Positions 1 through 64,000 of a stretch of 64,000 nucleotides of DNA are shown here, one piece after another. How positions within the stretch are numbered: position 1 is the first letter of the stretch; every line of letters begins with the position of its first letter. This stretch comes from Naegleria gruberi. Taxonomy: Eukaryota. The translations under genes were made by a program, and so were the position numbers. The stretch is taken from NCBI GenBank assembly GCA_000004985.1, contig GG738846.1. The stretch is one strand, 5' to 3'. Below the pieces are notes generated by a model. That model was given only the letters and a program-made list of their open reading frames with translations. It was not told the DNA's origin and ran no database searches.

Positions 1-1183
1 ATTTTCATTAATCACCCTACCAAATTCATTAAGGACAACTCCTCTCTTTTGATCGAAAGGAATGTCTGTATCAGCTTGCACGCTCTTGTATCCAATGCTT
101 TCAAAAACCAAATCGCATTCTATTTCTTCAAAAATGCCAGATCCAACAGCTTTTGGTTCTCCACCTTTTGGATCCTTTTCTATAAGTGTAATCTCAAATT
201 TTATAGATCCAACTCTGGAAGGATCACTCTTACTTGGAATGAATTCTACTGGATTTCTGAAAAACAAGAGTTGAACAAGCTTGGTGTCCTTATCGAGAGT
301 TGGTTTTTCAGTGGCTGTTTGTAAAAGTTGAACTAGTCTTTGCTTGGCTCTTCCCTCCTTTTCCAATTGTTCCTTTGAATTCTCGTCAATATATTCATTC
401 TTAACTTGAGTTGGATCAATATAGAGGCAGTTCAATTTGGTTAATTCTCTCAATTCCTTGGTAGTGGCTGCAATTTGAACAGGGCCTCTTCTACCTACAA
501 CAAGAATATGCTCCAATGTCTTGTTAGAATTTTCCAAAATATTAATTGCTTGAGATGTCAAATCATAACATTTGAGTGTATCAATAGGTCTTGCTAAAAT
601 TCTAGCAACATCTAGAGCTACATTTCCTTGCCCAATAATTACAGCCTTCTTGGATGTTTCAATTAATTGCCTATATCTGTTGAATGTTTCAGGTGTAGTA
701 TGTGAAGGAAGACCGTTATACCAAGAGACAAACTCACGAGCACTCTCCACTCCCTTCAAAGATTCTCCATTAATACCTAATGATCTTTCACTATCAGCTC
801 CATAGGTTAATACTACAACATCAAACATTTCACTAAGCTCTTTAAATCTGACATCTTTGCCCAGTGTCACATTTCCTAAAAACTTTACTCTTGAATCTGA
901 AGCGATACTATCGAAATCATTTTGAACATTTTTAACTTCGGGATGATCAGGAGCAACACCATACCTTACGAGACCGTATGGAGTTGGTAATTTTTCAAGA
1001 ATTGTAACATCAACCTTGTCTACATTCGATTCTTTTTGGAGCAACTGTTTTGCTGTGTAAAATCCAGCTGGGCCACTTCCAACAATGCAAATGTTCAAGT
1101 CTCTCTTTGAATAAGAAAGTACCGAAGCGATGTGATTAGTCTTGTTGGATAATGAAAAGGATGAGCATAGGCTTCTAAACATT
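1..1183 (-). CDS. FDXR: Adrenodoxin/ferredoxin-NADP+ reductase (mitochondrial), 5' part; the gene runs off the window start (3'-partial)
   Basis: Minus-strand translation from the ATG (complement 1181-1183) gives MFRSLCSS...SKRDLNICIVGSGPAGFYTAKQLLQKESNVDKVDVTILEKLPTPYGLVRYGVAPDHPEVKNVQNDF. This matches the hallmark FDXR/Arh1 N-terminus (GSGPAGFYTA...FGLVRxGVAPDHPEVKNV). The frame is open to position 1. Confidence 0.85.
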
Positions 1184-1457
1184 TTTTTGATTGAAAAAAC
1201 ACAATGATAGTCCTCTCTAGTGAGGATGTCCTACAAGAACCATGGTGCGCTTTGAGGACCACCTAACTCTGCGCAGTAAGTCAGCTGACTTCATAATAAC
1301 GCAAGCAAAGTTTTGACTTATGTCATCTTAGTTGCATTGATATATCGCATTGTTAAACATAATCATCTTGTCCATGTTCATAATCACTAGGAGCTTATTC
1401 TGAAATTTAGAACCCCGTCACCTCTTGTAAATAGTTGGAGAATAATCGAGTATTAAT

Positions 1458-1505
1458 AATAGTTAACTATTCTAATCTTATATTTAGGTGATCATCAATT
1501 GATGA
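1458..1505. repeat. Two perfect 14-bp palindromes (aatagttaactatt at 1458-1471; tcatcaattgatga at 1492-1505) 34 bp apart
   Basis: Each is its own reverse complement. They lie in the 360-bp spacer between the 3' end of the RGG gene and the 5' end of FDXR (both minus strand). Possible 3'-end or promoter element. Confidence 0.4.
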
Positions 1506-1543
1506 ATCTTATTAGTACAATCTCTAGAGTCTTTATCATCTAT

Positions 1544-1972
1544 TTATTCTGTTGATCCGGTGTTACTGGAGGCTTCTTCTTGCTTGTTTTCAGTACTATA
1601 ACCGAGGTGATCTTCAATTTCCTTGTCCAATTCAGCTTTAGTCTTTTTTTCCTTCTTTTCTCCTCTTGGTTTTCCACCTTTAGCACCACCTCTAGCACCT
1701 CCTCTAGCACCACCTTTGGCACCTCCTCTTGGTTTTCCACCTCTAGTGGTATTACTCTTCTTGGTAATACCTTTAACAGGTCCTTGTGAGGAGGACTTGT
1801 TTACTTGGCTAAATCTTTCAGAAAGAGTAAGACTCTTTTTAACAACTTCTCTCTTTCCTCCATCAGATTTAATAACCAATTCAGAATCGTTGTTGTCAGA
1901 GTTGGTTCTTCTTCCACCGTTGTTTTGTCTTGATCCGCCACGTCCACGACCACGTCCTCTTGGTGCAACCAT
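1544..1972 (-). CDS. Small RGG/GAR-repeat protein, CHTOP/FOP-like (chromatin target of PRMT1 family)
   Basis: 142-aa ORF, MVAPRGRGRGRGG... The segment KSLTLSERFSQVNK resembles the CHTOP N-terminal motif KMSLNERFT. A (GGAKGGARGG)n glycine-arginine block follows, and the C-terminus TKAELDKEIEDHLGY resembles the CHTOP/ALY LDxxLDAYM-type tail. The track's upstream extension (MCILGAEL...) is unlikely; the ATG at 1970-1972 is followed by the RG repeats. Confidence 0.6.
   Translation of the reverse strand: MVAPRGRGRGRGGSRQNNGGRRTNSDNNDSELVIKSDGGKREVVKKSLTLSERFSQVNKSSSQGPVKGITKKSNTTRGGKPRGGAKGGARGGARGGAKGGKPRGEKKEKKTKAELDKEIEDHLGYSTENKQEEASSNTGSTE
1682..1729 (-). repeat. Four tandem 12-nt units (agcacc[a/t]cctct) encoding the GGA(K/R) repeats of the RGG protein
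   Basis: Directly visible on the plus strand at 1682-1729; coding microsatellite-like repeat. Confidence 0.6.
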
Positions 1973-4532: not shown

Positions 4533-5532
<1,000 letters not shown>

Positions 5533-5648: not shown

Positions 5649-6103
5649 TTATTTGAAAAAATCATCATCCTCATCATCATCATCTTCGTCATCATTGTCA
5701 TCATCATCATCACTGTCAAATGAACTCTTCTTTCTTTGAATTTTTACTTTGGTCGATCCACTTCCGGACATTTGTTCCAACATTTTAACCAAGAGTTCTT
5801 CATTAATTTTACCTGGAAGTTTTCCACCTTGTGCCAATTTAATTGCATAATCCTCGAATGCTCTTGCTCTTTCTGGTCTTACAAGGAAAATTCTATTCAC
5901 TATTATTTTTAATAATATTAATAATTATTTGATCAAAAATATTCCGACATTCATCAATGGTGTGCTAACTTACATCTTTCTCTGGCATCGTGTTCAAGAA
6001 TTTGAGAGAGAATAGCTCTTCTCTTTTCTTCGGCCTCTTCCATGGCCTTCTTTTGTTGTTCTTGTTGTTTGGCTCTTTCTTCTTCGTTTTGTGGTTGTTG
6101 CAT
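5649..6103 (-). CDS. PDCD5: PDCD5/TFAR19 (programmed cell death protein 5) homolog, two exons: join(5649..5899,5974..6103) on the minus strand
   Basis: Exon 1 encodes MQQPQNEEERAKQQEQQKKAMEEAEEKRRAILSQILEHDARER. The donor is GTAAGT and the 74-nt intron ends ...aatag. Exon 2 encodes LNRIFLVRPERARAFEDYAIKLAQGGKLPGKINEELL... with an acidic tail. Both match the PDCD5 family (AILAQVL...ARxRL...LVKPEKA...). About 126 aa. Confidence 0.8.
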
Positions 6104-6169: not shown

Positions 6170-8077
6170 TTACATTTCATAATCTTCTTCTTGTTCTTCT
6201 TCATCTTGAGGAACGGATTCTTCTAATTTCAATAATTCCTGACGAGCAATTTCATTAAATCTATTCAATGAGAGAGCTTTGTGAAAACATTGGAATGCAT
6301 CTTCGAATCGTTGTTGTAGGAGGTATATTTGACCTAACTTGGTTTGAATAATGTCAGTATTTTGTTTAAGGTTTGGAGATTGAAGAGTTTTGATTGCTGA
6401 ATCAAAATGTTGTCTCTTAATATCTAATTCAACTTTGCCTAATAGTGCCTCTTCCATTCCAAATTCATTCTTTGTTTCTTGGCAGATTTTTAGAGCAGAC
6501 TCGAATTCTTTTTGAGCATTATCATGAAATTCTTCCTTCATTGTATATACACTTCCAAGAAGAATGTGAGGTTTGTAATCAAACTTTCCATGGTAAATTT
6601 TTTGAGCAGAGAGAGCAATATTCAAGGCATCTTGAAAATGTTGTGGAATTGATAGGTGAGCCTTAACTAGCCCTTGATAGATACGAATGTCTGTTGAGAT
6701 TTTTTTGGCTTGTTTGTAAATGAGAATGGCCTTGTTGTGTTGTTGAGCCATTAATAATAAATGACCTTTCCAAAGATAGGCTAGAATGAATGAGGGATTC
6801 AATTCGAGTGCTTTGTCAACAGCACGAATAGCCATTTCCATATTTTGTTGTAAAGAATTCTTATTAGATTCACTTTCATCAGAAACTACACTAAATAAGG
6901 TGGTTCTAGATGTGTAATAAATAGCAAGAACTAACCAGCATTCTGAGGAACCCTTATTTGTTTTAAGTAATCTGGTTGATAAACTTTGTAACTCTATAGG
7001 GTGTCCAGTTGTTTGTAAAAGAGTGGCAAATGTACTAGATTTACAATCTGTGTACGCATCCATTTTGTAACATTTTTTGAATAATTCAATAGCCTCATCA
7101 TACTTGGATAATTGATCATAGCATTCAGCCAAATTCAATTTTAGCTCAACATTATTAGGGAATGATTTTTCCAAAGATTTGAGAGATTGAATTAACTTTT
7201 CATGTTGGTTATTGTGAGAATAATATTTGACATCTACCAATTTAGCTAACCAATCTTCTTTTTTGTAATAATCAGTGAGATTTTTCTTCTTGTCTTCTGG
7301 AAGTCCTAACTTGATCAATTTTTCTACTGCAGAAATTGAATATCTGTCCAATCTTAAAACATCTTGATAGCAAGCTACAGCCTCTCTACTTTTATCATTT
7401 TTCATGTAGATATCTCCCAATTTCATACAATTTTTAACATTTCTAAATTCTTTTGGAATTGATTTTAAATGAATTTCTGCCTCATCATCCAAATTAATTT
7501 TCAAACAAGCATCGGCAAGCAGTTCACAAATGTAATAGTGCTTCTTTTGGTCTTCTTGAGTTTTTGATGATAAGTTCTCCAAAATATAGGATGATATTGC
7601 AGATGCCTGAGCCAGATAATGCTAAAATTGATTCCAATAAAAATTGATTCTATTAATTAAACAAACCTTTGCCTTTACAAATTCGTTATTTCCAAAAAGT
7701 GCTCTCGAATAGCTTACAATTAAATCAACAAATATTTGCAACATTTCCACTTCCTCTTGAGGAGAATTGCTTTTACAATTTTCTTTAAACGATACAAGAA
7801 CAACATTGGCCAATGTATCAACACAATATTCAGGTGATGAAAAATTCCAAGATGATTGATAGGGCGAAATATTCGAATCAGTTGACGGAGAACCTTTCAC
7901 AATAGAATTGAAACAGGCACTAATCATTAATGTCCCAATCTCACAGGCACTATCATAAAATTCATTATGTATTTGTTGATTTAATTTCTTGATAATAACT
8001 TTAAAGTTTTCCTTTCCGAAGAGCTGGTTCATACCTGATGGAGAAGGAATGTTGGATGATGATATTTGTGTTGGCAT
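6170..8077 (-). CDS. ANAPC7: Anaphase-promoting complex subunit 7 (APC7)-like TPR protein, two exons: join(6170..7621,7667..8077) on the minus strand
   Basis: A 45-nt intron (donor AAG|GTTTGT, acceptor ttttag|CAT) joins the 137-aa N-terminal ORF to the TPR ORF. The track's MENLSS start is a TTG artefact; the frame continues upstream as HYLAQASAISSYILENLSS. KSIPKEFRNVKNCMKLGDIYMKNDKSREAVACYQDVLRLDRYSISAVEKLIKL aligns with human APC7 GIPSRQRTPKINMMLANLYKKAGQERPSVTSYKEVLRQCPLALDAILGLLSL. Downstream TPR blocks also align (DWL..., ECWLV...). About 620 aa. Confidence 0.7.
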
Positions 8078-8107
8078 TTTTTTAATTTTTTGGCGGCAAA
8101 ATTTTTA

Positions 8108-10577: not shown

Positions 10578-11812
10578 TTAATCAGCATACAATACCAGAG
10601 CAACACGTTCCTTATAAACTTGTCTAACATTTTCAATAACAGATTCAGAAGCAAAAATTCCACCAATAGACTCTTCTACAATTCTAATCAATTCAAAAAG
10701 TGAAGCATTAACCTCTCCACTTGGTTCAAACTTTAATTCATGTCTCTCATTATGAATTTTATCAATAATTTGAATAGCTTGTAAATATTCCTTTTCTAAA
10801 CTAGTTTGAAACACTCCTCTGTCATCTGTATTGATTGAAATTGGATGATTTGAGAGGTAGTACATGACTAATGGATGTTCATGGAGATTATTCACTGATT
10901 TACTCATCAAGTTTGATGTTAAATTAATTTCAACTGGAATTTTTTCAAAGAGACTATCGTCCTCCTTATCATAATAATTGTCAACTTTTAAAATTTGTTT
11001 CAATTCGTCATTCAAACAAACTCCATGTCCCAATCTGAATTTTAACTTTCCAACAAATTTGCTACAATGTTGTAACATTAATTTTGATTCTTCATAATTA
11101 TCAATTTCTGCAAAATGAATAGTTTGGTGCATATTACACTCTTCGAATAACTTTAAGAATGCAGAAAAGTTTCCTTTAAAATTTTAAACTTTCTAAATAT
11201 TTTCAAGAAGAGTAACCTACCTTTATAAGGATTTCCAGAAAGATCCAATCCAACAATACCACTACTTTTAAATATTTTTCCATTATTAATTTGCTCCTTT
11301 CTTTCATTTACAAGTTCTTGCATGACATTTACTGTTTCTCTTGCAAGTTCAATATTTTCTTCCCTGTTGACACTTACAAGCAAGCCTACATCAACAAAAT
11401 TATGTTCCCTTGTATTTAAAAAGTTTTCAATAGTGTCAATAACACATTGTAAATATTGTTTCTTTGTATAATTTGCATCACTTTTTGGAGTTGTTCTCAA
11501 TTCCAAATAAATAGTATTTTCATTGTCGTAATCTTCTAGTATTTCGGTTGTGATTCGTTCTAATATTCTCAAATCTCCACAAGTTACAGAATTGATTATT
11601 TTAAATATGTCAAAACATTGTTTTAAATTTCTATTATCTCCTTCAGTTAATTTGACTTGGGTGATGATTTCTTCAGGATTTGGATAAATTTCTGGATGTA
11701 ATTTAATTAATTCATAAATTGTATCGGAACGAATACATCCTCCAATATGTGTATGAAGATCAATCTTTGGGAGAAGTTGAATGATGGCTCTGATTCGTTT
11801 CTCATCTAACAT
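10578..11812 (-). CDS. ADAL: Adenosine deaminase-like protein (ADAL / N6-methyl-AMP deaminase family), two exons: join(10578..11173,11221..11812) on the minus strand
   Basis: Exon 1 encodes LPKIDLHTHIGG... and ...VGLDLSGNPYKG (ADA motifs HxHLxG and G-DL-G). The donor is AAAG|GTAGGT and the 47-nt intron ends ...ttaaag. Exon 2 encodes GNFSAFLKLFEECNMHQTIHFAEI...RLGHGV...EINLTSN...SINTDD (the HAGE, GHG and SxNTDDP equivalents). About 396 aa. Confidence 0.75.
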
Positions 11813-15338: not shown

Positions 15339-18300
15339 ATGAGTGATCATCTGTCTAGTCATCATGCGGCTGGATCGCAAACATCACCATCATCATCAAT
15401 ATTTGAATCATTTTATAGAAAATTCGAATCATTACGGAGGTCTAATGGTATGTAGTGTGATCATTAGGAATATTTTAAACAATGCTAATCCGAACATGTT
15501 GTTATTATTGTTGTTAATATCAAATAGATATAATCAACTTAACAAAAGTCTTAACAGAACTAAGAGACATTCTTGAAAGTGCCTCTCTATCAGAATGCTT
15601 TGAATTTTCTTCTATATTATTACGTCCACTTGTGGAATTTCTCAATGAAGGTACAACACCAAAATTTAAGAAGGATGACAAGGAACATCTTCTCAGACAA
15701 GTAATAATAGAAATTATACAAAAACTTCCACATACAGAGGTTAGTATTGAACTTTAAACTATCAACTAATGTGATTAATAGTTATTTGATGAAAGAGCTG
15801 GGAAAAAAGATGATTTAGTACTTTTAGTCAATTCTCTTATTAATGTCATCAAGACAGATAATGAAATCAATGGAGTGGTGGCTATTAGATTAATAATCGA
15901 AATTCAAAAATGTTTCAAATCAAACATTACAGACTTTGTTCAACCTCTTATTGAAATATTCCTACATTTTTTCGGAAATTTTGAAAAGATTGTTGAGAAA
16001 TATTTAGGAAGAAAACCAAAGAAAAATGCATCAGACCCAACAGTGGAAGGAGAATCATACCCTTTAACAGAATTGGATTTAATACCTTCCATGGATAGTT
16101 GTAAATTAATGTTAGAGTTACCAGTATTTATTATATTCTTCTTCCGTACATTAACAATCAAAGATACAAATAATAATATTTTTATCAAATTGGTTGAAAA
16201 GATGTATGATATTTTAAGATATGAAGTATCAGTTTCTGATTCAGTAATGTCATCTCCATTTGGAAAAGAAAGAGTTGAAGATTTCATGTTATTGAGGGTT
16301 AAAACTATTTCATTTTTGATTTATACCTCTTCTAAATATAAGAATAATGATAATTATACAACGGAAATACCTAGATTTGTTATTAAATGTCTTAGGGAAT
16401 GTCCAGACGAATGTATAGCTCCAAGAAAGGAAATGCTTTCACTAATGAGACATATTGTTGAAAGACAAAATGATGATTCTAATACTATTTGCAAATATTT
16501 TTTACCTTACATGAATGAAATGTTGGATGATACTATTTTAATTGGTAAAAGTAGATCTGCTCAAGAAACAGTAAGATCATCTGCTTATTCAACAGTTCTA
16601 GAAATATTGAAAAATCAATTGAAAAATATTGAATTTTCTCCTTCTAATATTGCTTCATGCATTTTATTTTGTACTAAGGTATTATTTGATTCATCTTTAG
16701 GAATTACAATTCATGGTTTAGCAACAGGATTGCTAGTAGCATTAACTCAAAATGTTTTTGATCAAATAAGAAAGATATCTGGAGTTTCAGATCCATCTGG
16801 TGATGTCTGTGCTGCCTTGTCTGGTATTTCAGAAGAGTCACTTTCACAAATCACCAAATTTAAGGATCATTTGTTGAGTATTATTCAAACATTTGTTCAA
16901 AAGATTAAGTTCATTTCTAATTTTATCAAAAAGATAATACAATATAAGAATATTCAAAAATCTTCAACATTGAACGAAAAGGAACAAACTGATGATATGA
17001 CAATGATTTTACCATTTAGTCCATACAAATCATGTGAAAATTTTAATGATGATATTTCTTATTGCTCCATGATGTTTAAACAAATAATTTTTGGTTTAAA
17101 GTCAACAGTACTTCTATATAATATGATACCAAGAAATGAGAAACAAAAATTCCCAGAATTATCAGTATTATCTAAACTTTTTAGATATGGATTGGATTGT
17201 TTCGATATTTTCAATTTATATTCAGAAGATACAGAATATGGTCAAAAGCAACGAGTATTAGATGAAAAGGAAATATTTAATAACTATTCATCTTTATATA
17301 CATCACTACCTTCGGCTTTATTTACAGAAATATTCAAAACTCAATTTGATTATCTATACAAAAAATTATTAGAAGGAAGAACAATGACATTTATCCATAT
17401 TCCATCAAATATTCTCTCATCTTCTCAACATATTGCTTCAATTCTCTCAGAGATACTCTTAAAATTTTTACTGAAAAGAATGGATAGAATACCAAAAGAT
17501 CGTAAAGAGGCTTATTATATTCACAACCTATACAAATTAGTATTTGGTTCAGTGGTAACATTCCCTAAGAATGAATCTATTTTAAAAAATCAAATGACCT
17601 CGATTGTTACATCATGTTTCAGTTATGCATCTAAATATAAGGATTGTTTAGATTATTATCTAATTTTAAGATCTTTATTCAGTTCAATCCTTACAGCTAA
17701 ATTTGATTTACTTTGCAAGGAATTCAGTCAATTACTTCCAACAGTTTTGGAAAAATTGTCTGATTTGGTAAATAATGCTCATGACAAGGAAACAAGGAAT
17801 ATATTTGTAGAGCTTTGTCTAACAGTTCCTTCCAAGTTACACGTTTTATGCCCTTATCTTTATTTATTAATCAAACCAATACTGTATGCTTTAGAGCCTG
17901 GTTCAAGTGAGAAGGCTGTTAGTGCAGCTTTAAGAAATCTGGATTTGTGGGTTACTAGTTTACGTAATGAATCATTAGAAGCCATTCTTAAACCTGTTAT
18001 ACCAGATTTACTTAAAGCACTATTCTCTCATTTGAAACCTCCTCCATACCCTCATGGATCTGCAGTAATGAAATTATTAGCTAAGTTGGGTGGTAGTCAC
18101 AGACAATATATGAGTGAATTAACTTCAGTTAGTGTCAAGTCACCAAATGCTTTATTCCTAAATATTAATTTTAATTCTAATCAAACGGAATCATTACCAA
18201 TGGATGAATTGGTTGATACTTCAATTGAAATTTGTTTCGATAAGGATCAAGATGTACAAACAAAAAAGAGTGCATTTGATTTTTTGAAAACATCATTACT

Positions 18301-33609: not shown

Positions 33610-33709
33610 ATTTACAATGTTATTCACACTGGTAAAGATATTTTGATTTTCATGTTTTTCAATATTAGAATTATCAAAAAATTGTTTAACCTTTCCACCA
33701 TCAAACGAA

Positions 33710-34265
33710 TTAAGAAATATTGAAACTTACCTGTGCTTGGTCAATTAAACTTTGCTCGGTTTTCTTTGGTAAGAAATTGCTGAAAAAGCTACCAACACTG
33801 GAAGTTCTATTTACCCAAGAAGGAATGTTGGCACCAACCAGTATTTTACATAATTCATTTGAAAAATGATTACAATTTTTCCTTAGAGGATGATATTCTG
33901 ATGGTTTGAAGCTTGTTTTCAATTGATTAATAATATTATTCAATTCCAAAATCGTTGTATACTCTGTATTTCCCATAAAAATTGATTGCATAAAGGTTGC
34001 TCCATTCGGATATTTTGGTTTATGTGATACAACTCCTGCAGTAGTAACCAAAATATTTTCAAAGAGTGAGTTGATTTACCAATTATTGCTTACCTTCAGA
34101 AGAGAACATGTATTCCGTATTTCTAATCTCTACACCGGAATGGTAGGTTCCCAAACCAACAGAATTTTGTAAACCAGAGAAAAACCCTTGTTGTTTTTGA
34201 AGATCATAAACGTTCAAATACACCTTTAAACCCTCTTCCGAAGAGATCTTTTTGTTTTGAAGCAT
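33710..34265 (-). CDS. DESI2: PPPDE/DeSI-family deSUMOylating isopeptidase (DESI2-like), two exons: join(33710..34035,34094..34265) on the minus strand
   Basis: Exon 1 encodes ...VYLNVYDL...GLGTYHSGVEIRNTEYMFSSEG, ending at the donor G|GTAAGC. The 58-nt intron ends ...ctgcag. Exon 2 encodes VVSHKPKYPNGATF...YHPLRKNCNHFSNELCKILVGANIPSWVNR (PPPDE catalytic H...C dyad; NCNHFS and IPxWVNR motifs). Confidence 0.75.
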
Positions 34266-37192: not shown

Positions 37193-37199
37193 TTTATTA

Positions 37200-39474: not shown

Positions 39475-40687
39475 ATGTCAGAATCCAAATTAATTGCTTT
39501 CGGTAGAGTTGCCACCACTCTTGAAATCGGTATTGTTGGTTTGCCAAACGTTGGTAAATCCACCTTCTTCAACGTTTTAACTAATTCTCAAGTTCCTGCT
39601 GAAAACTTTCCTTTCTGTACCATTGATCCAGCCACATCTCGTGTTGCTGTTCCTGATGAAAGATTTGATTGGTTAGTTGGACATTGGCAACCAGCTAATC
39701 ATGTTCCAGCTATCTTGAACGTTACCGATATTGCTGGTTTGGTTAAGAATGCTTCCGAAGGTTTGTATTTAATGTTGTGATGATGTTTATTGTTATTCCA
39801 AAATAATAATAGGTGAGGGTTTGGGTAACGCTTTCTTGTCTCACATTCGTGCCACCGATGCCATCTTCCATATGGTTAGAACTTTTGATTCTAAGAATAT
39901 TACTCACGTAGAAGGTAGTATTGACCCAGTTAGAGACATCAAGATTATTGAAACTGAATTGATTAAAAAGGATATCTCCTACTTGGAAAATATTAGAGGA
40001 CCAACTGAAAAGCTTGCCAAGCAAAAGAAGGAAAAGAAGGATGAATTGGACAGTATTGACAAGGCTCTTGCCATGTTGAAGGAAGGTCGTGAAGTTAGAT
40101 TTGGTGATTGGAATGGAAAGGAAATTGAAATTTTGAATCCTCACCAATTGTTGACTACCAAACCAATGATTTACCTTGTCAACATGACTCCAAAGGATGT
40201 TGTTGATCCAGAAAAGAATGAATGGATTGCCAAGATTAGAGAATATGTCAGCTCAAAGGGTGATGCTGAACCAGTCATTCCATACAGTGCTGCTTTCGAA
40301 AAGAAATGGCAAGAAACTGATGAAGAAAAGAGAAAGGAATTGACAGGAAAGGGTATCACATCCAAGCTTCCAGAAATCATCAAGATTGGTTACAAGACTC
40401 TTAACTTGATTTACTACTTTACTGCTGGTAAGGATGAAGTCAAGGCTTGGACAATTAAGAGAGGTACTAAGGCTCCACAAGCTGCCGGTAAAATTCACTC
40501 TGACTTTGAAAAGGGTTTCATTTGTTGCGAAGTTATGAAGTTTGAAGATTACAAACAATATGGAAGTGAACTTGAATGTAAGAACAATGGTAAACTCAAA
40601 GAAAAGGGTAAAGTTTACGAAGTCGAAGATGGTGACATTATCTTCTTCAAATTCAACACTGCTGGTGGTGGTCCAAAGAAGAAGTAA
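39475..40687 (+). CDS. OLA1: Obg-like ATPase 1 (OLA1/YchF), two exons: join(39475..39760,39813..40687)
   Basis: Exon 1 encodes ...[35 protein letters not shown]...[12 protein letters not shown], ending at the donor G|GTTTGT. The 52-nt intron ends ...aataatag. Exon 2 begins [24 protein letters not shown] and runs through the TGS domain to ...[16 protein letters not shown]. It is nearly collinear with human OLA1. Confidence 0.9.
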
Positions 40688-42850: not shown

Positions 42851-42866
42851 ATATTTTAGTTTAATT

Positions 42867-44622: not shown

Positions 44623-44646
44623 ATAAAAATCTCTGGAGTTCAATCT

Positions 44647-46574: not shown

Positions 46575-47399
46575 TTATCCAAAATATATTGAACCATCAC
46601 CAGGACCTAAATAACCAACACTCACAAGAACTAGATCAACTATTGCCCACAACCCAACACCACCTTTTATAATAATAAAATTGTCACTTAATTGTCACAA
46701 CTATTAACTTACCTAGTGTAAATAATTTGAAAACTCCCCAACCAGCATGACCCAAATAAAATCTATCAGCAGAAAATCCAGATAAACTAATATTTCATTT
46801 TGTAATGAGCAATTTCAATAGATTTTTCAAGTTGAAGTTCTGAAATTAAAAAGAAAACTTACAATAGGGAAAATACAAAAGTAGATGACCATTTCTTTCC
46901 AGTACTATAATTCACTTGGGATACTTTTGAGAAGGATCTATTTCCTAAACAAATAATATTTCTATTCACTTTACAATTTACAATAGTTGTATCTTGGCCT
47001 GATTGGAGTCCAGTTTGTGATGGTTTATAATCACAAATATAATGAACATTTTCAATTAATTGCCAACAATATTTACAATAATAAGTCTTTGCAAAACTTG
47101 TATCACCATCACAATTTGTTGCTGTACTATTAATTGTACATTGTGTATGATAAATATTTCCTAAAGTACAATTGGATGACATGTTACAACTCAAATAATC
47201 AGCACTTAAATCACTGCAATATTCCTAAAATAATGATCATCCGATTAGTAATTCCGAATATATTTATCATCAATTAATAACATACTCTCAATTCCGCACT
47301 GGTAATTTGAATTTGTAAAAAACCCAATACAACAACCATCACAAGAAGGGTAGAATAATTCGTTAATGATGGACGAAATCGTCCATTTTGTTGTGTCAT
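46575..47399 (-). CDS. TM2-domain protein (TM2D1/2/3 family) with signal peptide and Cys-rich ectodomain, four exons on the minus strand: join(46575..46663,46713..46786,46863..47224,47286..47399), about 212 aa
   Basis: Exon 1 encodes MTQQNGRFRPSLTNYSTLLVMVVVLGFLQIQITSAELR (a signal peptide), with donor |GTATGT and a 61-nt intron. Exon 2 is the Cys-rich region EYCSDLSADYLSCN...CKYCWQLIENVHYICDY...WSSTFVFSL. The track's stop at 46859 lies inside a 76-nt GTAAGT..tattag intron. Exon 3 encodes FLSGFSADRFYLGHAGWGVFKLFTLG, with donor G|GTAAGT and a 49-nt intron. Exon 4 encodes GGVGLWAIVDLVLVSVGYLGPGDGSIYFG. This is the TM2 consensus (..DRFYLG..GlGvlKL.TlGG.GiW.lvDlil). Confidence 0.65.
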
Positions 47400-47517
47400 T
47401 TTTTATTTCCTTCTTTTTTAAAATTGTAAATAATTCAATTTTGCCAATTTAAATATTATTAAATCTTTCCAATCTTGTAACAATAAGAATATGTTCTCTC
47501 AAGTCACAATGCAAAAG

Positions 47518-48189: not shown

Positions 48190-48248
48190 TTTTTTATTTA
48201 TTTAAAGTTTAAAATATTAAGATAATATATTATTCAGGATTATCAATT

Positions 48249-51200
48249 TCAATACACCACCTCTTCTTGATCATGATGTGAATGAAGGGATGGTTTTGTC
48301 TCCACAACTTCAATATCATTTTCTTCTAAATTTATACAACTACTTGATACTTGATGTTGTAAAGTTGGAGGGGTTTTGGAAAAAATTGGATTTACATGAT
48401 GTTTTTCTTTCAAGAGATAGGTTTGACACATTCCTTTTCCTTTCACTTCAATACTTCTCTCCTCAAATTCATACAGGTCATATATTCTTTCATATGTTGA
48501 ACGAGAAATATGGATTCTTCCTGGAATTCCAGTTGACTCCATCCTAGATGACAAATTAATAGTATCTCCCCATAAATCATAGGCAAACTTTTTACGTCCA
48601 ATCACTCCAGCGACAACACTTCCTGTATTTAATCCAATTCTGTATCAAATGAGTCAATCAATTTAGTGATAAATGAAAGTTATTAAACAATGATGAGGAT
48701 GAAATCAACACATACCTGATATTAACTTGAGAAGATGGATTTTCTGCATTATACGTTCTAATAACAGTCAGAGTTTCAATAGAGAACTTGATACACCTCT
48801 CTGGATGATCGGATTGAGGATTATTATGTAGACCACCCACACAGAAATAAGCATCTCCAATGGTTTTAATCTTTTCCAAACTGTACTTATCAGTCAGGTC
48901 ATCAAAACCATTCACAATACTATTTAACATTAGAACTAATTCAGATGGATTCATATTAGAAGATAGTTTGGTAAACCCAACCATATCACTGAAAAAACAT
49001 GTAATGTCTGCAAACTTTTCAGCAATAAAAGTTTCACCATTCTTTAATTTGGTTGCAACAGCGTCAGGTAAAATATTTCTCAATAAATTCTCAGAATTCT
49101 TTTTCTCTTCGGCAAGAAGTGCATTTTGCTTCTTTTCTGTTGTAATGTCCTTAATTACAAGTGAAATAATAATTGATCCATTATTGACCTCCGTTCCAAA
49201 TATACTTATTTGGGCTGGGAATTTTGTTTGATTTTTTCTGATACACTCAATTTCTATCACTTCACCCACAGACAGTTCATCACTGTTATCAGTTGAATGA
49301 ATTAAATGATGGGTAAGGTTTTTGATCAATTCATGTGAAATTTCATCAAATAAAATTATACAAGGCAGACCAATGACATCAGTTGCAGATTTTCCAAACA
49401 TTTTCTGTGCAGCAACATTAAAAAGTGTAATTTCTCCCTTTTCATTACATAGAACAGCCCCTTCAACCATAGAATTGAGTAGATTTCTTATGGAATCATC
49501 AGTATCAATTTTCTTTCGTTTGGTGCTATGTTTAGTCATGGTATTATACAAGGCAAAGTTTTTCAAAGTATCATTTGAATCAAAATAATCCACTGGGATA
49601 TAATTCAAAAAGGACCGAAGCATGGTAATTTCATTATCACTCATTTGATAATTCAAAAAGATTATATAATTGAAAAGTGGCAATGTAATAATCCCAACAA
49701 TAAAAAATACAATACTAATAGCCTTGGAAGAGTTTGAAGTATTGGTTGATAGAGAGTTCAGTAATTCTGTCAAACGATTAATCATTTCATCAGTTAAATT
49801 AAAAATATCGAGATAACTTATGAATGTATCTTGTCTAATTGCAAAGAATGGATTCCAAATGTCTTCGTTAAATTTGCTACAAGCATGTGTAACAATGGCA
49901 ACTAATTCCTGTAGCTTGTAACAAGTACCATTGAACGAACATGTGAGTGGTGATGTTATGATTTCGTCCACTCTCGAATACTTTCCAATAATAGGGGCTG
50001 TAACTTCACTACCAAATAATAGTTCTGTAAATCTTGTTTGAACCTCAGATATATAATCTCTATTATCTGTTCTATAGGTAGCCAATTGTGATGCAGAACC
50101 TATAGCAACATTGTTAACATTTCTACCAGGTTTAACACCCAAAAACGCGTATAGCTCACTCAATCGAACTGTTAATCTGATCGCTGCTCTCATAACAGCA
50201 GTTGCAGTGTCAATATTAACCATTGTTTCAGAGGCTGTTTGGACATTGAGATAATTCTCCATATACATCAATGAAACGTATAATGAAAAACAGAGTAATG
50301 CAAGAAATCCTACAGCTATGGATATCCATTTTGGATTCATAAACTCACCCAAATGTTTAGCCTCTTGGTTTGTCTTTCGCTGCAAGTCTTGATAGATATT
50401 TCCAATAATATCCTTGGGCAATCTCTTAAATAGAGTAATGATATTTGTCGATTTTCTCATTTCAATTCTACTGATAACTAGAAACATGGAATAAATGATA
50501 ATCAATACGCCAGTCGAAATAAATAGATAATATCTGAGAATGAGGTCAATGTCTGCATTTTGTACTCGTTTGCTTTCTTGAAATTTAGAACAAAATAGTG
50601 CATTAGCATCTGCTGCAGTTCTTCTATTCAAATACAAGTACATAAATAAATAAGATGTTATAGTTTCATTGTAATCTTTTGGTGTCCAATCAATGAATGA
50701 CTTGGTTAAGGTCATGAATTCTTGAGTGAGTTCACTCATTGATACATTCTTTTTGTAACTTGTCAAATAAGATATTGTACTCTTCTCTACTGAAGCAATT
50801 GGAACAACAATGGGATTTTCTGGGGATGTATAATCATTAAACATTTGTTCTGTATACTTTGAAGTCATTGAATTATCAGCCAGTTGTTGCAAATATAGCA
50901 AATGTCTCTCGAATCTCATTTTGTGATTTGTTGTGAAATAATTGAGTACTTTACCATCTGTTGAATTTTCATTAGGAATTGCCCAATTCTGATTACCATA
51001 TAGCTCCTTATATATTTGTCCCATTCTCACCTTTAACAATAAGCACACAATATAATATGATGAAAAACATTAAACTTACCTCTCTGATGAGGGCACTAGG
51101 TGATGTACCTGGAAGACAACTCTGAAGAGTTAATGGAATTTCTGTAACTAAACTTCCAAATATCATACATAAAGCAAAAGCCACCACTAACATTAGAACT

Positions 51201-57268: not shown

Positions 57269-58601
57269 TTACATATATTGATCGATTTTAGCTGGCATTT
57301 CCTCAATGGTTGTGGAATAGTGTTGTTCAATATCTTTCAAAACACCAACATCCATTTCTGTAACAAAGTTAATTGCAACACCCTTTCTTCCATATCTACC
57401 AGATCTACCAATTCTGTGAATATAATTTTCTCTATTTGTTGGCAAATCATAATTGATAACAAGTGACACCTGTTGTACATCAATACCTCTAGCCCACACA
57501 TCTGTAGTGATTAACACTCTCGATTGACCTTTTCTGAATTCTTCCATAATGGCTTCACGTTCCTTCTGTGGCATTTGTCCATGCATAAATGATACTGTAA
57601 AGTTATGTTTCTTCATTTGTTTAGCAAGCCATTCTACTTTATCTCTCTTATTACAAAATATGACAGCTTGTGTAACAGTAAGAGAGTCATATAAATCACA
57701 TAAAGTTTCAAATTTCCAATCTTCCTTTTCTACAGCAATGAAAAATTGTTTAATTCCTTCCAAAGTAACTTCATCTCTCTTTACAAGAATTCTAATTGGA
57801 TCAGTCATAAATTGTTGTGTAATTTCCAAAACTTCTGCAGGAAGTGTAGCAGAAATTAATACAATTTGTGTATTATTCAATAGACGATAAATTTGATAAA
57901 TTTGTTCCTTAAATCCTTGACTTAACATTTCATCAGCTTCATCCAATACCAGTAATTTGATATGTTTAGTATTGAGGTGTTGTTGTCTCATCATATCATA
58001 AACTCTTCCAGGTGTACCACTCACAACATGAACTCCACTTTCCAATTTTTTAATATCCTCACCAACTTTATTACCTCCAACACAGGCATGGACTTGTGCA
58101 TGAAGATAATCTCCTAGGTATGACATGACTCTTTGAGTTTGTTGAGCGAGTTCACGTGTTGGTGAGAGAACAATTGCTTGTGGATGTAATTGTTTAATGT
58201 TTAACATTTGCAAAATTGCAATTGAAAATGTTGCAGTTTTACCTATAATGATGATTAATTTTTTAATTCTTTTTAAACTTACCTGTTCCTGATTGACTTT
58301 GTGCAATTAAATCATTTCCTTGTGTAATTGGTTTAATAGCTCGCTGTTGGATAGCTGATGGTTTTGTAAATCCATATTGATAAATTCCACGAAGTAAATC
58401 ATCATTTAATCCCATATCTTCAAAAGTAGGACAAACTTCCAACTTGACAGAAGCACTAATATCCTCTCCAGTTTCTGTTTTTCCTTGTTTTTTTAAATTA
58501 TTTACAGATGATTCCGATTTTTTTGATGTTTTACTTGAATGAGAAGTAGTGGAGGAGGAAGCTGCTGATGATGACTTTTTACCTGATGATGTTGATTTCA
58601 T
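57269..58601 (-). CDS. EIF4A3: DEAD-box RNA helicase eIF4A-III/FAL1-like with a Ser/Lys-rich N-terminal extension, two exons: join(57269..58242,58283..58601) on the minus strand
   Basis: Exon 1 ends ...[31 protein letters not shown], with donor G|GTAAGT and a 40-nt intron ending ...cattatag. Exon 2 begins [12 protein letters not shown]...PTRELAQQ...[18 protein letters not shown]...SAT...[19 protein letters not shown]...[14 protein letters not shown]. This is closer to eIF4A3 (GFKEQIY; IKQFF.AVE; [13 protein letters not shown]) than to eIF4A1. Confidence 0.85.
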
Positions 58602-58887: not shown

Positions 58888-59317
58888 TTACAAGCCAAGA
58901 AGTTGCTTCTTCTTCAAATCAAACTCTTTTTGAGTAATGACACCCTTATCCCTCAAGCTGGCCAATTTTTCCAATTCAGAATATTTATCAGAATCACCAA
59001 CACCTCCAGTTTTAACTTCTCTCTTCACTTCACTCTTTAAAGATTGTTTCGTCTCTGTTGTAGTTATGGAAGGAACTTGACCCTTCTCATATGGATTTTG
59101 GTTGACAGTTTTTTGTTTATTCCAATCGTGAAGTACTTTTTGATTGGAGAAGGTAATTTTACTATCATCCTTTTCTTTTGCATTGAGTGTTAACATGGTA
59201 TTGTACTTGTGAGCTGAGTGAAAAAAACTTATTCCAAATTTTATATAAATTGTGTAAAAACTCACCTTCCTTGTCTTTTTGCTCAAAGCTGTTTAATCTA
59301 TCTCTGATTGAACTCAT
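58888..59317 (-). CDS. Small SHOCT-domain protein; two-exon model join(58888..59213,59266..59317) on the minus strand, about 125 aa
   Basis: The C-terminus LEKLASLRDKGVITQKEFDLKKKQLLGL matches the SHOCT consensus (L..L..L...GvIteeEFe..Ka.LL). The model joins an ATG exon (MSSIRDRLNSFEQKDKE, donor G|GTGAGT) through a 52-nt intron with a pyrimidine-rich ...tttttttcactcag acceptor to the SHOCT ORF (AHKYNTMLTLNAKEKDD...). The splice is inferred, not proven. Confidence 0.4.
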
Positions 59318-60071: not shown

Positions 60072-60234
60072 ATTATTAACAATTTCTTGTTATTATTTTA
60101 TAATAAATAGCAATTAAAATAAATATGTGATCAAATGATATTGAAGAAACGTGTTTAATAAAACGTGTCTATTTGGAATCTATTATTAAAAGGTTGGTTA
60201 TCATCATCATCATCAGATGTATTAAAGTTGTATT

Positions 60235-61629: not shown

Positions 61630-61795
61630 AATCTATTTTTCAAACCAGAATGCATAACAATTTCAATTTTCTAATTTGAAGATTTTGAACGGCACCCAAT
61701 AGTATTAAGATATTTGAAAATCATATTGCTAGCCATTCAACTTCAATTATAAAAATAATAATAGATAATTTATTGAATATCAAAAAATTTAAAAA

Positions 61796-62559
61796 ATGGC
61801 CTCTACATCACACCACAACTCGGAAACTGTTGTTCTTTCCCAAGCTCTTGATGCTACAAATAAACCAATTGTTGCTGTAGATATTGATGAAGTATTGGCA
61901 CCTTTTGTACCATTATTGATTGAATTTTATAACAAACATCATTTACTTGAAGGACAAGAGCCATTAACTATGGATTTGTTTCATAATTATCATTTTAGAT
62001 ATGTATGGGGAGGAAGTGAAGAAAGATCAAGAGAAATTGTGAATCAATTTCTTGAAAGTGATTTATTTATTAATCAACCAATGTTGGACAAGTCATCATT
62101 TAATGTTTTACAAAAATTAGGAGAAAAGTACAAGTTGGTTATTGTCACATCTAGACAATACAAGATTAAGAATCAAACAGAAAATCTTTTAAAGACATAT
62201 TTTCCAGAAACATTTGCTGAAATTCTTTTAGGTAAGTATTGTTAAATATTTATTTTAATAATTCTAAAATATTTTCATTAAAATGATTTAAAAAAGGAAA
62301 CCATTATGGTGACAATGGAGAAACCCAAATGTCTAAACCAGAAATGTGTAAACAATTGAATGCAGTATTACTTATTGATGATTCTCTGAAATATTGTGAA
62401 CAATGTGTAAGTGAGAAAATACCTGCCATTCTATTTGGAAATTATGCTTGGAATAAAAATACTGAACCATTGGATAATGGGTGGATCATTAGGGTAGATG
62501 GATGGAGTCAAGTTGAACAAGCTGTAGAAAACATGCTTAAACAACATAATCACATATAA
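61796..62559 (+). CDS. HAD-superfamily 5'(3')-deoxyribonucleotidase (NT5C/NT5M family), two exons: join(61796..62231,62297..62559)
   Basis: Exon 1 encodes IVAVDIDEVLAPFV (HAD motif I DxDxV)...VIVTSRQ..., ending at the donor G|GTAAGT. The 65-nt intron ends ...aaaaaag. Exon 2 begins GNHYGDNGETQMSKPEMCKQLNAVLLIDDSLKY... (HAD motif III). About 232 aa. Confidence 0.7.
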
Positions 62560-62890
62560 ACATTTTAGAATAATTTTAACTAAACAACACAAAAATAATT
62601 GAAAAATCAGGTCATTATATTTTCAAGTATTCCAATGTAACGCTCTTAATAACAACCTAATTTCCACAAGGTTCGCTCCCATTAAGGTGCTTAGTTTTTG
62701 ACTATTCGAGAAGAGTGCTGTAATTCAATTTTCCAAATTGGTCCAATAGCTCCATTGCTTGCATTAATATGAAGTTGTGGATTTCATAATGCCAATCTGC
62801 ATAATATTATTAGCGTGTGTTATCTTAGTGGCTGCACATTATCTTCAATTTAAAGAAATTAAAAAAAATTGCAACCACTTTATCAAGAAA

Positions 62891-64000
62891 ATGTCCTCTT
62901 TTCGAAGAAAAGGTGTAAAAACAATACTTACACTCCTCTCCGCCACAACAGCTGTTTTTACAGGTTATCAATTTAATGAATTTTTGAAGAAACAAGATAG
63001 ATTTATGAAGAATGATATTTCGGAAGAGACAAGTAATTTACTAACCTATGACAGAAGTAAATTATTAAATAGTAAAACAAGGATTGGAGAAAATTTAACT
63101 GATAAATTAGTATTAAAAACAGATAGAGAAGAAAATATTAGAAAATTGGAAAGTCAAGAATTATTTGACATTATTGTTATTGGTGGAGGTTCTGTTGGAA
63201 GTTCTGCTGCTCTAGATGCCACATCGAGAGGCTTAAAAGTTGCACTCATTGAAAGAAATGATTGGGCAAGTGGTACATCATCACGTGCTACTAAAATGGC
63301 TCATGGTGGTGTTAGATATTTAGAAAAGGCTGTCATGAATTTAGATTGGAATGAATTGATGCTTGTTTATGAATGTTTGAGAGAGAGAAAGCATTTTTAT
63401 CAAGTTGCACCACACCTTTCATCACCTTTACAATTATTAACACCTTGTTATACTCTGTATGATTCTGTGAAAATGTTTGCTGGTTTGACATTATACGATT
63501 TTCTCAGTGGTTCTGAAGCTAGATTGGGTAATTCTGGGTGGGTATCAAAGAAAAGTGCTCTCACTGTTTGGCCATCTCTAAAAGAAAAAGGACTCTATGG
63601 TTGTATGACATATTATGATGGTGTATTCAATGATTCTAGAGTGAATGTGAGTACAGTTTTGACATCCAATGCTCTAGGTGCTGTAACTGTTAATTATTTG
63701 GAAGTAATTGATTTGTTAAAATCAACAGAGAATGGTGAAGTTAATGGTGTTAAAGTGAAAGATAGATTGACAGGTAAAGAATTTGAAATTAAGGGTAAAT
63801 GTGTTGTAAATGCTACTGGTGCTTTTGTTGACAAGATTAGACAAATGGATGATCCAACATGTGCTCCAATCATTTCCCCAAGCGCTGGTACTCATATCAT
63901 GTTAAATATGGATAAATTTGTTAAGGGTATAGGAAAGCAACTTGGCATATTAGTACCAAAGACAAGTGATGGAAGAGTTTTATTCCTCGTCCCATGGGAA
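62891..64000 (+). CDS. GPD2: Mitochondrial FAD-dependent glycerol-3-phosphate dehydrogenase (GPD2/Gut2); the gene runs off the window end (3'-partial)
   Basis: MSSFRRKGVKTILTLLSATTAVF (presequence-like)...DIIVIGGGSVGSSAALDATSRGLKVALIERNDWASGTSSRATKMAHGGVRYLEKA. This is the FAD-binding GxGxxG motif plus the GPD2 signature. The frame is open to 64000. An in-frame upstream ATG at 62789 is an alternative start. Confidence 0.85.
   Translation, partial: MSSFRRKGVKTILTLLSATTAVFTGYQFNEFLKKQDRFMKNDISEETSNLLTYDRSKLLNSKTRIGENLTDKLVLKTDREENIRKLESQELFDIIVIGGGSVGSSAALDATSRGLKVALIERNDWASGTSSRATKMAHGGVRYLEKAVMNLDWNELMLVYECLRERKHFYQVAPHLSSPLQLLTPCYTLYDSVKMFAGLTLYDFLSGSEARLGNSGWVSKKSALTVWPSLKEKGLYGCMTYYDGVFNDSRVNVSTVLTSNALGAVTVNYLEVIDLLKSTENGEVNGVKVKDRLTGKEFEIKGKCVVNATGAFVDKIRQMDDPTCAPIISPSAGTHIMLNMDKFVKGIGKQLGILVPKTSDGRVLFLVPWE

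Follow-up and report, generated by a model that had tools for sequence, protein, structure and literature searches.

Which organism would carry protein genes only a few nucleotides apart, interrupted by introns of 38 to 83 nt, and do these features reflect real gene structure? A first-pass annotation of the 64,000-nucleotide stretch analyzed here (the window) had held that this combination of features constrains the organism, and it did. The NOP2 ORF was 100% identical over 702 amino acids to an NCBI Naegleria gruberi protein, compared with 77% identity to N. fowleri and 76% to N. lovaniensis. Including NOP2, eight gene models were residue-identical to N. gruberi RefSeq proteins (the others being XP_002682733, XP_002682734, XP_002682735, XP_002682736, XP_002682739, XP_002682954, and XP_002682956). 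The GC content of the window (~32%) and its 1.69 exons per gene agreed with the values of 33% and 1.7 given for N. gruberi in PMC8296547; the NEG-M statistics used here are those of Fritz-Laylin et al. (2010, Cell 140:631), as quoted in Table 2 of PMC8296547 and in PMC8040595. With such figures published for this genome, the compact style is already known. We are highly confident that the window is a gene-dense nuclear stretch of the heterolobosean amoeboflagellate N. gruberi, strain NEG-M or a near-identical one, and that its compactness is the normal, published style of this genome.

Independent hand-built models resolved the 64 kb into 36 protein genes, 16 of them intron-bearing, with 0.69 introns per gene (25/36). 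In a leave-one-out codon model, all 36 coding sequences scored highest in their own frame. An A-run precedes the ATG in every gene (36/36), and the stop codons are TAA (31), TGA (3), and TAG (0). Even large genes of 11.8 kb and 5.1 kb carry just two short introns apiece. Packing is dense both here and in NEG-M as a whole, but the window exceeds the average in the quoted statistics (87% coding versus 57.8%; one gene per 1.8 kb versus ~2.6 kb), and the "extreme density" is therefore partly a property of this window.

The 25 GT-AG introns in our models reproduced the count and range given by the first-pass annotation (median, 52 nt; mean, 56 nt), with lengths of 38, 40, 40, 42, 42, 45, 45, 47, 47, 49, 49, 52, 52, 54, 57, 58, 61, 65, 67, 71, 74, 76, 76, 80, and 83 nt. 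The lengths it had named were correct (O-methyltransferase [OMT], 38 nt; eIF4A3, 40 nt; Tra1 and NagB-LmbE, 42 nt), as was the placement of only two Tra1 introns (80 and 42 nt) at the extreme 5′ end, within the gene's first 443 nt and ahead of one 11,514-nt exon. Its donor list (GTAAGT, GTATGT, GTAGGT, GTGAGT, or GTTTGT) was incomplete, since GTTAGT (Tra1) and GTAAGC (PPPDE-PITH) also occur; its acceptor list (tag, aag, or cag) has one exception, GAG in OMT intron 1, whose gene model is RefSeq-identical. The introns outside Rab2 are as follows:

5900..5973, minus strand: PDCD5 intron, 74 nt; removal makes Pfam dsDNA_bind a single stretch (profile 6-106 of 106)
7622..7666, minus strand: APC7-like TPR gene intron, 45 nt, GTTTGT...TAG; in-frame stop; human APC7 alignment crosses the junction
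11174..11220, minus strand: adenosine-deaminase-like (ADAL) intron, 47 nt; spliced product equals XP_002682956.1; Pfam match continuous, residues 15-331
15448..15527, plus strand: Tra1 intron 1, 80 nt; reopens the reading frame begun at ATG 15339, canonical sites, without homology support
15740..15781, plus strand: Tra1 intron 2, 42 nt, GTTAGT...TAG
27995..28061, plus strand: NagB-LmbE intron 1, 67 nt; Glucosamine_iso becomes one stretch, residues 34-258, E = 9e-25
29030..29071, plus strand: NagB-LmbE intron 2, 42 nt; PIG-L match extended from profile 1-21 to 1-128 of 129
32808..32852, minus strand: GRASP intron, 45 nt; links a first exon beginning MGN to the remainder; GRASP55_65 E improves from 1.5e-29 to 2.9e-40
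33691..33730, minus strand: PPPDE-PITH intron 2, 40 nt; joins the PPPDE and PITH frames, canonical sites, without homology across the junction
34036..34093, minus strand: PPPDE-PITH intron 1, 58 nt, GTAAGC...CAG; a single Peptidase_C97 match then covers profile 2-148 of 151
39761..39812, plus strand: YchF/OLA1 intron, 52 nt; spliced product equals XP_002682734.1
40862..40918, plus strand: POP1 intron, 57 nt; spliced product equals XP_002682735.1
43998..44068, plus strand: OMT intron 1, 71 nt, acceptor GAG; spliced product equals XP_002682736.1
44359..44396, plus strand: OMT intron 2, 38 nt, the shortest in the window; same spliced product, XP_002682736.1
46664..46712, minus strand: TM2-domain gene intron 3, 49 nt; junction inside the TM2 Pfam match, residues 147-195
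46787..46862, minus strand: TM2-domain gene intron 2, 76 nt; junction inside the TM2 Pfam match
47225..47285, minus strand: TM2-domain gene intron 1, 61 nt; placed solely by an uninterrupted ORF and canonical sites
48640..48715, minus strand: adenylate/guanylate cyclase intron 2, 76 nt; flanking ORFs match contiguous Guanylate_cyc profile segments, 3-103 and 103-182
51031..51079, minus strand: cyclase intron 1, 49 nt; joins overlapping ORFs in different frames via GTAAGT...AAG, without homology across the junction
58243..58282, minus strand: eIF4A3 intron, 40 nt; DEAD match unbroken over profile 2-165 of 167, with a run of 10 residues restored
59214..59265, minus strand: SHOCT-domain gene intron, 52 nt; placed solely by an uninterrupted ORF and canonical sites
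62232..62296, plus strand: 5′-nucleotidase (NT5C) intron, 65 nt; spliced product equals XP_002682739.1

The Rab2 gene contributes three introns and two microexons:

4828..4874, plus strand: Rab2 intron 1, 47 nt, GTAAGT...AAG; spliced product gapless against human Rab2A across switch II
4875..4884, plus strand: Rab2 microexon, 10 nt, CTTTTAGATC; part of AFRS of switch II, missing from reference model P0128
4885..4967, plus strand: Rab2 intron 2, 83 nt, GTATGT...TAG; the longest in the window
4968..4979, plus strand: Rab2 microexon, 12 nt, TATTGCAAGATC; encodes IAR(S) of switch II
4980..5033, plus strand: Rab2 intron 3, 54 nt, GTAGGT...TAG

The median spacer between genes was 166 bp (n = 35). 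The tightest spacings previously reported were exact when read from the sequence (37192/37200, 7 bp; 42850/42867, 16 bp; 8077/8108, 30 bp), and those of a minus-strand run, given as 59 to 118 bp, measured 59, 118, and 96 bp. Several intergenic regions under 100 bp had also been said to host divergent start codons; 12 of the 35 spacers are indeed that short, but just one of these is divergent (ADAL/CDC123), the remaining seven divergent pairs being 132 to 525 bp apart. Key spacers are listed below:

8078..8107, minus strand: 30-bp spacer from the G07 stop (8108-8110) to the APC7-like ATG (8077); G07 is XP_002682954.1
11813..11895, unstranded: 83-bp spacer separating the start codons of ADAL and CDC123; the sole divergent pair under 100 bp
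37193..37199, unstranded: 7-bp spacer between the convergent stops of YEATS (TAA, 37190-37192; XP_002682733.1) and G20 (TGA, 37200-37202)
42851..42866, unstranded: 16-bp spacer between the convergent stops of POP1 (identical to RefSeq) and G24
48190..48248, minus strand: 59-bp spacer from the cyclase stop to the G28 ATG

If the frame breaks were sequencing or assembly errors, or pseudogene frameshifts, the short "introns" would go unspliced, and ORF-bridging GT...AG pairs are indeed numerous by chance. Such pairs alone are no evidence, because a scan yields hundreds of them inside long ORFs; we relied instead on frame-breaking, domain continuity, and identity to reference proteins. All 25 introns carry an in-frame stop and/or a frame shift. 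A strong donor stands at every break (GTAAGT or GTATGT in 17/25), with YAG or AAG acceptors, and the candidate introns are AT-rich (GC, 0.23 versus 0.34 in coding sequence). Removal of 12 of the 25 fused split Pfam matches into one stretch with contiguous profile coordinates, human Rab2A (gapless) and human APC7 align through the respective junctions, and six spliced products match RefSeq proteins residue for residue. For seven introns, placement came solely from an uninterrupted ORF and consensus splice sites (the two Tra1 introns, PPPDE-PITH intron 2, TM2 intron 1, cyclase intron 1, SHOCT, and in part APC7-like). In an independent metagenome assembly, two contigs match 3.5 kb of the window at 99.5 to 99.9% identity, although neither covers an intron. 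Sixteen pseudogenes among 36 housekeeping genes would be implausible, and we give the error explanation almost no credence; from the observed frame breaks and homology continuity, we infer that each intron is actually spliced. It is also unlikely, though less so, that the reference annotation is right wherever the models differ, with a substantial class of introns of at least 200 nt and the 38- to 83-nt range an artifact of model building. The reference Rab2 model (P0128; 241 amino acids) has one 202-nt intron (4832-5033), the annotated N. fowleri Rab2 introns are 80, 129, and 244 nt, and the mean intron length of the N. gruberi reference annotation, as tabulated in PMC8296547, is 203 bp. The window mean of 56 nt is much shorter, and the window or our models may therefore be unrepresentative of the annotated genome. 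Against this, the reference Rab2 model lacks the switch II segment, which is universally conserved, and uses the donor GTAGAA, whereas the microexon model has strong donors (GTAAGT, GTATGT, and GTAGGT) and restores AFRSIARS, the exact peptide of N. fowleri Rab2; an ENA homologue has the similar TFRSIARS, and human Rab2A has SFRSITRS. The N. fowleri introns differ in being longer, at other positions, and without microexons. As judged from sequence, the conserved Rab2 protein is fitted by three short introns and two microexons and not by the 202-nt intron. The GRASP reference protein (XP_002682960.1) equals our model minus exon 1, which betters the domain match, and this shows that the reference annotation does miss short introns.

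Exact-sequence lookup returned no reference-identical model for 13 of 21 genes, two of which (Rab2 and GRASP) nonetheless had a recoverable reference model; it found no identical protein for the APC7-like model in the N. gruberi reference set, and the 3,944-amino-acid Tra1 model was absent from the reference protein set. The exact proteins of G20 (37200-38315) and G24 (42867-43718) were likewise absent from the NCBI N. gruberi set, and no Pfam domain was found in either, as would be expected if neither were a real gene and the 7- and 16-bp spacers were artifacts. In UniProt, the run D2UZT3-D2UZT7 has a single free slot between the YEATS and YchF entries, and the POP1 and OMT entries leave no slot between them. 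However, G20 and G24 stay open for 371 and 283 codons in DNA of 33% GC, score best in frame under the codon model, begin after A-runs, and end in TGA followed by AATAAA and TAA followed by ATTAAA, respectively. An exhaustive HMMER search recovered homologues reaching the C termini of both: 46 to 52% identity for G20, with an invariant SIVYYWKVFCKISYVC motif ~20 residues from its stop, and 34 to 49% for G24, including one end-to-end match at 49%. That the two are spurious is thus very improbable. They appear instead to be conserved genes missing from the reference annotation, as the lack of room in the UniProt run suggests, and for at least four genes here (Rab2, GRASP, G20, and G24) the reference model differs from the best-supported structure or appears to be absent.

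How do genes this close end and begin? Nanopore direct-RNA data give N. gruberi a median 3′ UTR of 39 nt, with AAUAAA 15 to 20 nt ahead of the cleavage site and known dual-use stop codons (PMC11529991). From these values and the spacers, which are read directly, we infer every UTR boundary and transcript end. At the 7- and 16-bp pairs, the 3′ ends look forced to enter the neighbor's coding sequence: the minus-strand AATAAA of G20 begins 2 nt past its stop, with cleavage predicted ~15 to 20 nt inside YEATS. The 3′ ends of the two mRNAs in each such convergent pair would have to overlap, by a few tens of nucleotides. Similarly, the promoter and 5′ UTR of the APC7-like gene look confined to the 30-bp spacer plus the tail of the gene upstream. 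The earlier suggestion that many promoters, UTRs, and terminators overlap neighboring genes therefore holds for a few pairs, but "many" overstates it, given the 166-bp median spacer and the predicted 3′ ends, which pass the next coding-sequence boundary in only 3 of 34 genes. A stop codon overlapping AATAAA is present in 11 of the 34 (32%), compared with 11 to 13% genome-wide (PMC11529991, whose subject does not extend to convergent overlap). Dual-use stop/poly(A) signals, described in that paper for Giardia, Entamoeba, and N. gruberi, are thus shared by the window. The stops of POP1 and G07, the genes upstream of the 16- and 30-bp spacers, are among them, which explains how these spacers can hold a complete 3′ end. 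Since this known device keeps 3′ UTRs short, most transcription units can probably fit without overlap. The genome style is one of ~0.7 spliceosomal introns per gene with canonical GT-AG boundaries and a strong GTAAGT/GTATGT donor, in which the AT-rich introns, at roughly 40 to 80 nt, are short enough for recognition by intron definition and intergenic spacers are short. Such packing is made workable in part by the A-run ahead of start codons and by very short 3′ UTRs, with AAUAAA often overlapping or directly following the (mostly TAA) stop codon.

Tiny introns are known elsewhere, in Paramecium (~25 nt) and chlorarachniophyte nucleomorphs (18 to 21 nt), and microsporidia have compact genomes with overlapping transcripts. 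The Naegleria genome shares with these genomes introns of a size suited to intron definition, very little intergenic DNA, and transcription units that overlap, but it differs in its longer introns (~40 to 80 nt), standard code (TGA as stop), mitochondrial proteins, and large gene repertoire; it is neither a reduced parasite genome nor an organellar one. The same style extends across the genus to N. fowleri (GCA_008403515.1; PMC8296547). No synteny with the window was found there around the NOP2 or Rab2 loci. The published coding fraction of N. fowleri is ~71% (PMC8296547), and two loci of 20 kb each together contain 16 complete genes, 10 of them intronless, with spacers that include 83 to 567 bp.

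Every junction was inspected in three-frame views, from which gene models were constructed manually; each model translates without interruption from ATG to stop. In a six-frame view, both strands of the window are almost fully tiled by ORFs, and Pfam matches are to typical eukaryotic housekeeping and signaling domains, often divided over adjacent ORFs in different frames. The models comprise 36 protein genes, 16 of which carry the 25 predicted introns (1.69 exons per gene); coding sequence makes up 86.9% of the window, with one gene per 1.8 kb, and GC content lies between 30 and 36% throughout (0.30 to 0.36 per 4 kb). Under a leave-one-out codon model, its own frame scores best for all 36 genes, and every one of the 36 starts shares an A-run before the ATG (positions −6 to −1, 70 to 97% A, typically AAAAAAATG). 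Among 34 stop codons, TAA predominates (31, with 3 TGA and 0 TAG). No coding potential was detected in the ORFs of any intergenic gap in the window, and scans of the whole window found no tRNA or Rfam family.

The compact, intron-poor, short-intron organization of Naegleria has reportedly been known since the 2010 genome paper; the genome-architecture finding is already known, and nothing new is added to it here. The first-pass annotation had proposed that this style narrows down the organism, which is correct; such a style is well documented for Naegleria gruberi. The NOP2 ORF (2252 to 4360, 702 amino acids) is 100% identical to an NCBI N. gruberi protein, compared with 77% identity to N. fowleri, 76% to N. 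lovaniensis, and 67% to Willaertia. Seven further models are residue-identical to RefSeq entries (XP_002682733, XP_002682734, XP_002682735, XP_002682736, XP_002682739, XP_002682954, and XP_002682956). These identities place the window in the nuclear genome of N. gruberi. The seven entries, NOP2, and XP_002682960, which equals our GRASP model without its first exon, belong to one 1,001,995-bp scaffold. The N. gruberi NEG-M genome is published as 41.0 Mb with 33% GC and 15,708 genes, in which exons average 1.7 per gene, coding sequence occupies 57.8%, and the mean intron length is 203 bp (PMC8296547 Table 2; PMC8040595); base composition and intron density in the window agree with the 33% GC and 1.7 exons per gene (PMC8296547 Table 2). 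In addition, ENA ERZ929261 metagenome contigs (run ERR1078381, project PRJEB11402) match two segments of the window, at 99.9% identity for 36332 to 39109 (L003) and 99.5% for 47476 to 48262 (L004), indicating that the sample contains DNA of N. gruberi or of a strain very close to it.

The independent models returned exactly the number and size range of introns previously noted from sequence inspection (25 introns of 38 to 83 nt; median 52, mean 56), and the four introns named there as examples, in the O-methyltransferase (OMT), eIF4A3, Tra1, and NagB-LmbE genes, have the sizes it gave. The two Tra1 introns do lie at the extreme 5′ end (80 and 42 nt, inside the first 443 nt), followed by a single exon of 11,514 nt in a gene encoding 3,944 amino acids. 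As expected of U2-type (major) spliceosomal introns, all 25 predicted introns have GT...AG boundaries and an extended donor consensus, with donors GTAAGT (11), GTATGT (6), GTAGGT (2), GTTTGT (2), GTGAGT (2), GTTAGT (1), and GTAAGC (1) and acceptors TAG (14), AAG (7), CAG (3), and GAG (1). GC content is 0.23 in introns versus 0.34 in coding sequence. A YTAAY motif occurs 7 to 25 nt from the acceptor in about 10 of the 25, although such a motif is little informative in DNA this AT rich. Because a scan of the window returned hundreds of ORF-compatible GT...AG pairs, splice signals alone prove little. Each of the 25 introns carries a frameshift or an in-frame stop, and homology continuity (Pfam, PDB, or RefSeq) backs 18 of them; the evidence for the remaining 7 is ORF continuity plus consensus. 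Intron removal merges split Pfam matches in NagB-LmbE (both), PPPDE, and TM2 (two introns), as well as in eIF4A3, the adenosine-deaminase-like gene (ADAL), PDCD5, the 5′-nucleotidase (NT5C), and GRASP. Two ORFs of the cyclase gene match contiguous profile positions (3 to 103 and 103 to 182), alignments of human Rab2A and human APC7 cross the junctions of the spliced models, and the spliced OMT, YchF, POP1, ADAL, and NT5C products equal RefSeq proteins exactly. No published intron-length distribution was found in literature searches.

Two models differ visibly from their counterparts in the reference, that is, the 2010 NEG-M annotation and RefSeq set:

4605-5532, plus strand, Rab2 gene with microexons of 10 nt (4875-4884) and 12 nt (4968-4979)
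31875-33026, minus strand, GRASP gene with exon 1 at 32853-33026 (58 amino acids), joined via a 45-nt intron

In the adopted Rab2 structure (model G), the 47-nt intron has donor GTAAGT, the 83-nt intron GTATGT, and the 54-nt intron GTAGGT, and the two microexons encode the switch II segment AFRSIARS. The resulting protein reads GQEAFRSIARSYYRG, the same as in the N. fowleri orthologue, and aligns with human Rab2A without gaps. The reference protein (P0128, 241 amino acids) instead reflects one 202-nt intron with donor GTAGAA; it reads GQEG-NYYRG and skips both microexons. A model with that 202-nt intron (model F) equals the reference, yet it deletes the conserved switch II segment, and we rejected it. 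A 238-nt intron (model A) was likewise set aside, its protein not being found among the reference proteins, and other microexon combinations (models B to E) were tried before model G was adopted. In contrast to this structure, N. fowleri Rab2 has no microexons: the peptide lies in an ordinary exon, and the annotated introns (80, 129, and 244 nt) are elsewhere in the gene. For GRASP, the reference protein (XP_002682960.1, 300 amino acids, starting MNVYSL) is our model minus the 58-residue first exon, inclusion of which improves the E value of the GRASP55/65 domain from 1.5e-29 to 2.9e-40. The peptide encoded by this exon starts with MGN, which is likely to be a site of N-myristoylation. We conclude that, where our models and the visible reference models differ (Rab2 and GRASP), ours are better supported.

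Besides Rab2 and GRASP, 11 genes gave no reference match in an exact-sequence look-up. Two of these are ORFs that face a neighbor in convergent orientation, YEATS for G20 and POP1 for G24:

37200-38315, minus strand, G20, 371 codons, no Pfam domain
42867-43718, minus strand, G24, 283 codons, no Pfam domain

Neither exact protein was found in the NCBI N. gruberi set, nor was G24 when begun at Met7. In the consecutive UniProt accessions of the neighboring genes, there is no place for G24 and a single place for G20 plus Rpb5. An exhaustive HMMER search over 1.84 billion representatives recovered homologues of both, at 46 to 52% identity for G20 and 34 to 49% for G24. Some 20 residues ahead of the stop, the motif SIVYYWKVFCKISYVC is invariant among the G20 homologues, and G24 aligns end to end with its best homologue. 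On the basis of ORF length, the codon model, the A-run before the ATG, and these homologues, we conclude that G20 and G24 are genuine genes; they appear to be conserved genes absent from the reference annotation.

Several other models have features of their own. The NagB-LmbE gene (27506 to 29597, plus strand, 660 amino acids) fuses glucosamine-6-phosphate deaminase (NagB) and PIG-L/LmbE-type deacetylase domains; no reference protein equals the 660-residue model, and a shortened variant (486 amino acids) has no match in NCBI N. gruberi proteins. Nor was a match found in that set for eIF4A3 begun at Met63 or for the PPPDE-PITH gene with a shifted acceptor. In the latter gene (33124 to 34265, minus strand, 347 amino acids), a PPPDE (Peptidase_C97) domain is linked to a PITH domain via a 40-nt intron, and the fusion depends on this single intron, across whose junction there is no homology. 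The cyclase gene (48249 to 53476, minus strand, 1,700 amino acids) has only two short introns; its N-terminal half comprises a long multipass membrane region and a TmcB-like TPR, followed by PAS and adenylate/guanylate cyclase domains. In CDC123, an in-frame, stop-free 39-nt segment (12263 to 12301, plus strand) has perfect intron signals (GTAAGT...TTTTCACAG). This segment is probably coding, since Schizosaccharomyces pombe Cdc123 aligns through it, and it could be a retained or alternative intron; neither the spliced form (344 amino acids, 39 nt removed) nor the unspliced form matches a reference protein.

Taken together, the reference for this 64-kb window appears to get one intron structure wrong, to truncate one gene, and to leave at least two conserved genes without annotation. 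Such apparent faults within a single window of this size suggest that re-annotation would alter both the number of genes and the intron statistics, figures that underlie comparative studies of early eukaryote evolution. Rab2, GRASP, G20, and G24 are compatible with a broader explanation, to which we assign somewhat less than an even chance: that the 2010 annotation systematically mishandles very short introns and microexons and drops genes abutting a convergent neighbor. If so, the real genome would be denser than 57.8% coding, intron lengths would be narrower than the 203-bp mean implies, and 3′-end overlap of convergent mRNAs would be a regular feature. The practical value is as a check on annotation quality, and the residual value is modest; material for re-annotation exists in public RNA-seq (PRJEB23822) and nanopore direct-RNA data (PMC11529991).

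Gene packing bears out the earlier description to the base, save in one respect. The convergent spacers of 7 bp (37193 to 37199) and 16 bp (42851 to 42866), the 30-bp tandem spacer (8078 to 8107), and those of the minus-strand run (59, 118, and 96 bp) are exact. The median spacer is 166 bp, and 12 of 35 are shorter than 100 bp (five convergent, six tandem, one divergent). The claim that several spacers under 100 bp host divergent starts was overstated: ADAL/CDC123 (83 bp) is the only such pair, and the other divergent pairs are 132 to 525 bp apart.

Long-read mapping of the ultrashort 3′ untranslated regions (UTRs) of Naegleria dates from 2024 (PMC11529991); the long-read 3′-end mapping suggested in the first-pass annotation is already in print. 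By nanopore direct-RNA sequencing, the median N. gruberi 3′ UTR is 39 nt, and the AAUAAA signal lies 15 to 20 nt ahead of the cleavage site; dual-use stops, which overlap AAUAAA, occur in 11 to 13% of genes, with a median 3′ UTR of 22 nt (PMC11529991). In the window, AATAAA overlaps the stop in 11 of 34 genes, including POP1 and G07 (the minus-strand gene upstream of the 30-bp tandem spacer), compared with 11 to 13% genome-wide (PMC11529991). We predicted convergent overlap from the 7- and 16-bp spacers, the AATAAA/ATTAAA positions, and the published 15- to 20-nt signal-to-cleavage distance. With AATAAA at +2 in G20 and ATTAAA at +2 in G24, cleavage should fall about 15 to 20 nt and about 6 to 11 nt, respectively, within the neighbor's coding sequence; for G20 the predicted position is about 37173 to 37180. 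For G07, the 30-bp spacer has room for the 3′ end of the mRNA, in which case the promoter and 5′ UTR of the next gene, an APC7-like TPR gene, must overlap the G07 3′ region. The proposal that many promoters, UTRs, and terminators overlap neighboring genes would thus hold locally, at the tight pairs, and not as a pervasive feature, given that predicted 3′ ends pass the next coding-sequence boundary in only 3 of 34 genes. Judged from these predicted transcript ends, overlap is local without being pervasive.

Two spacers have further features. The longest (534 bp, 31341 to 31874) separates the stop of GRASP from the start of LARP and is somewhat GC richer than other spacers; its 119-codon ORF has no coding signal, and the spacer has no tRNA or Rfam match. 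A motif of approximately 15 nt, ATATATGAGAATACT, is present in two copies about 43 nt apart (44657 to 44714). They straddle the 74-bp spacer across which OMT and the OB-fold gene converge, with the second copy within the 3′ end of the OB-fold gene.
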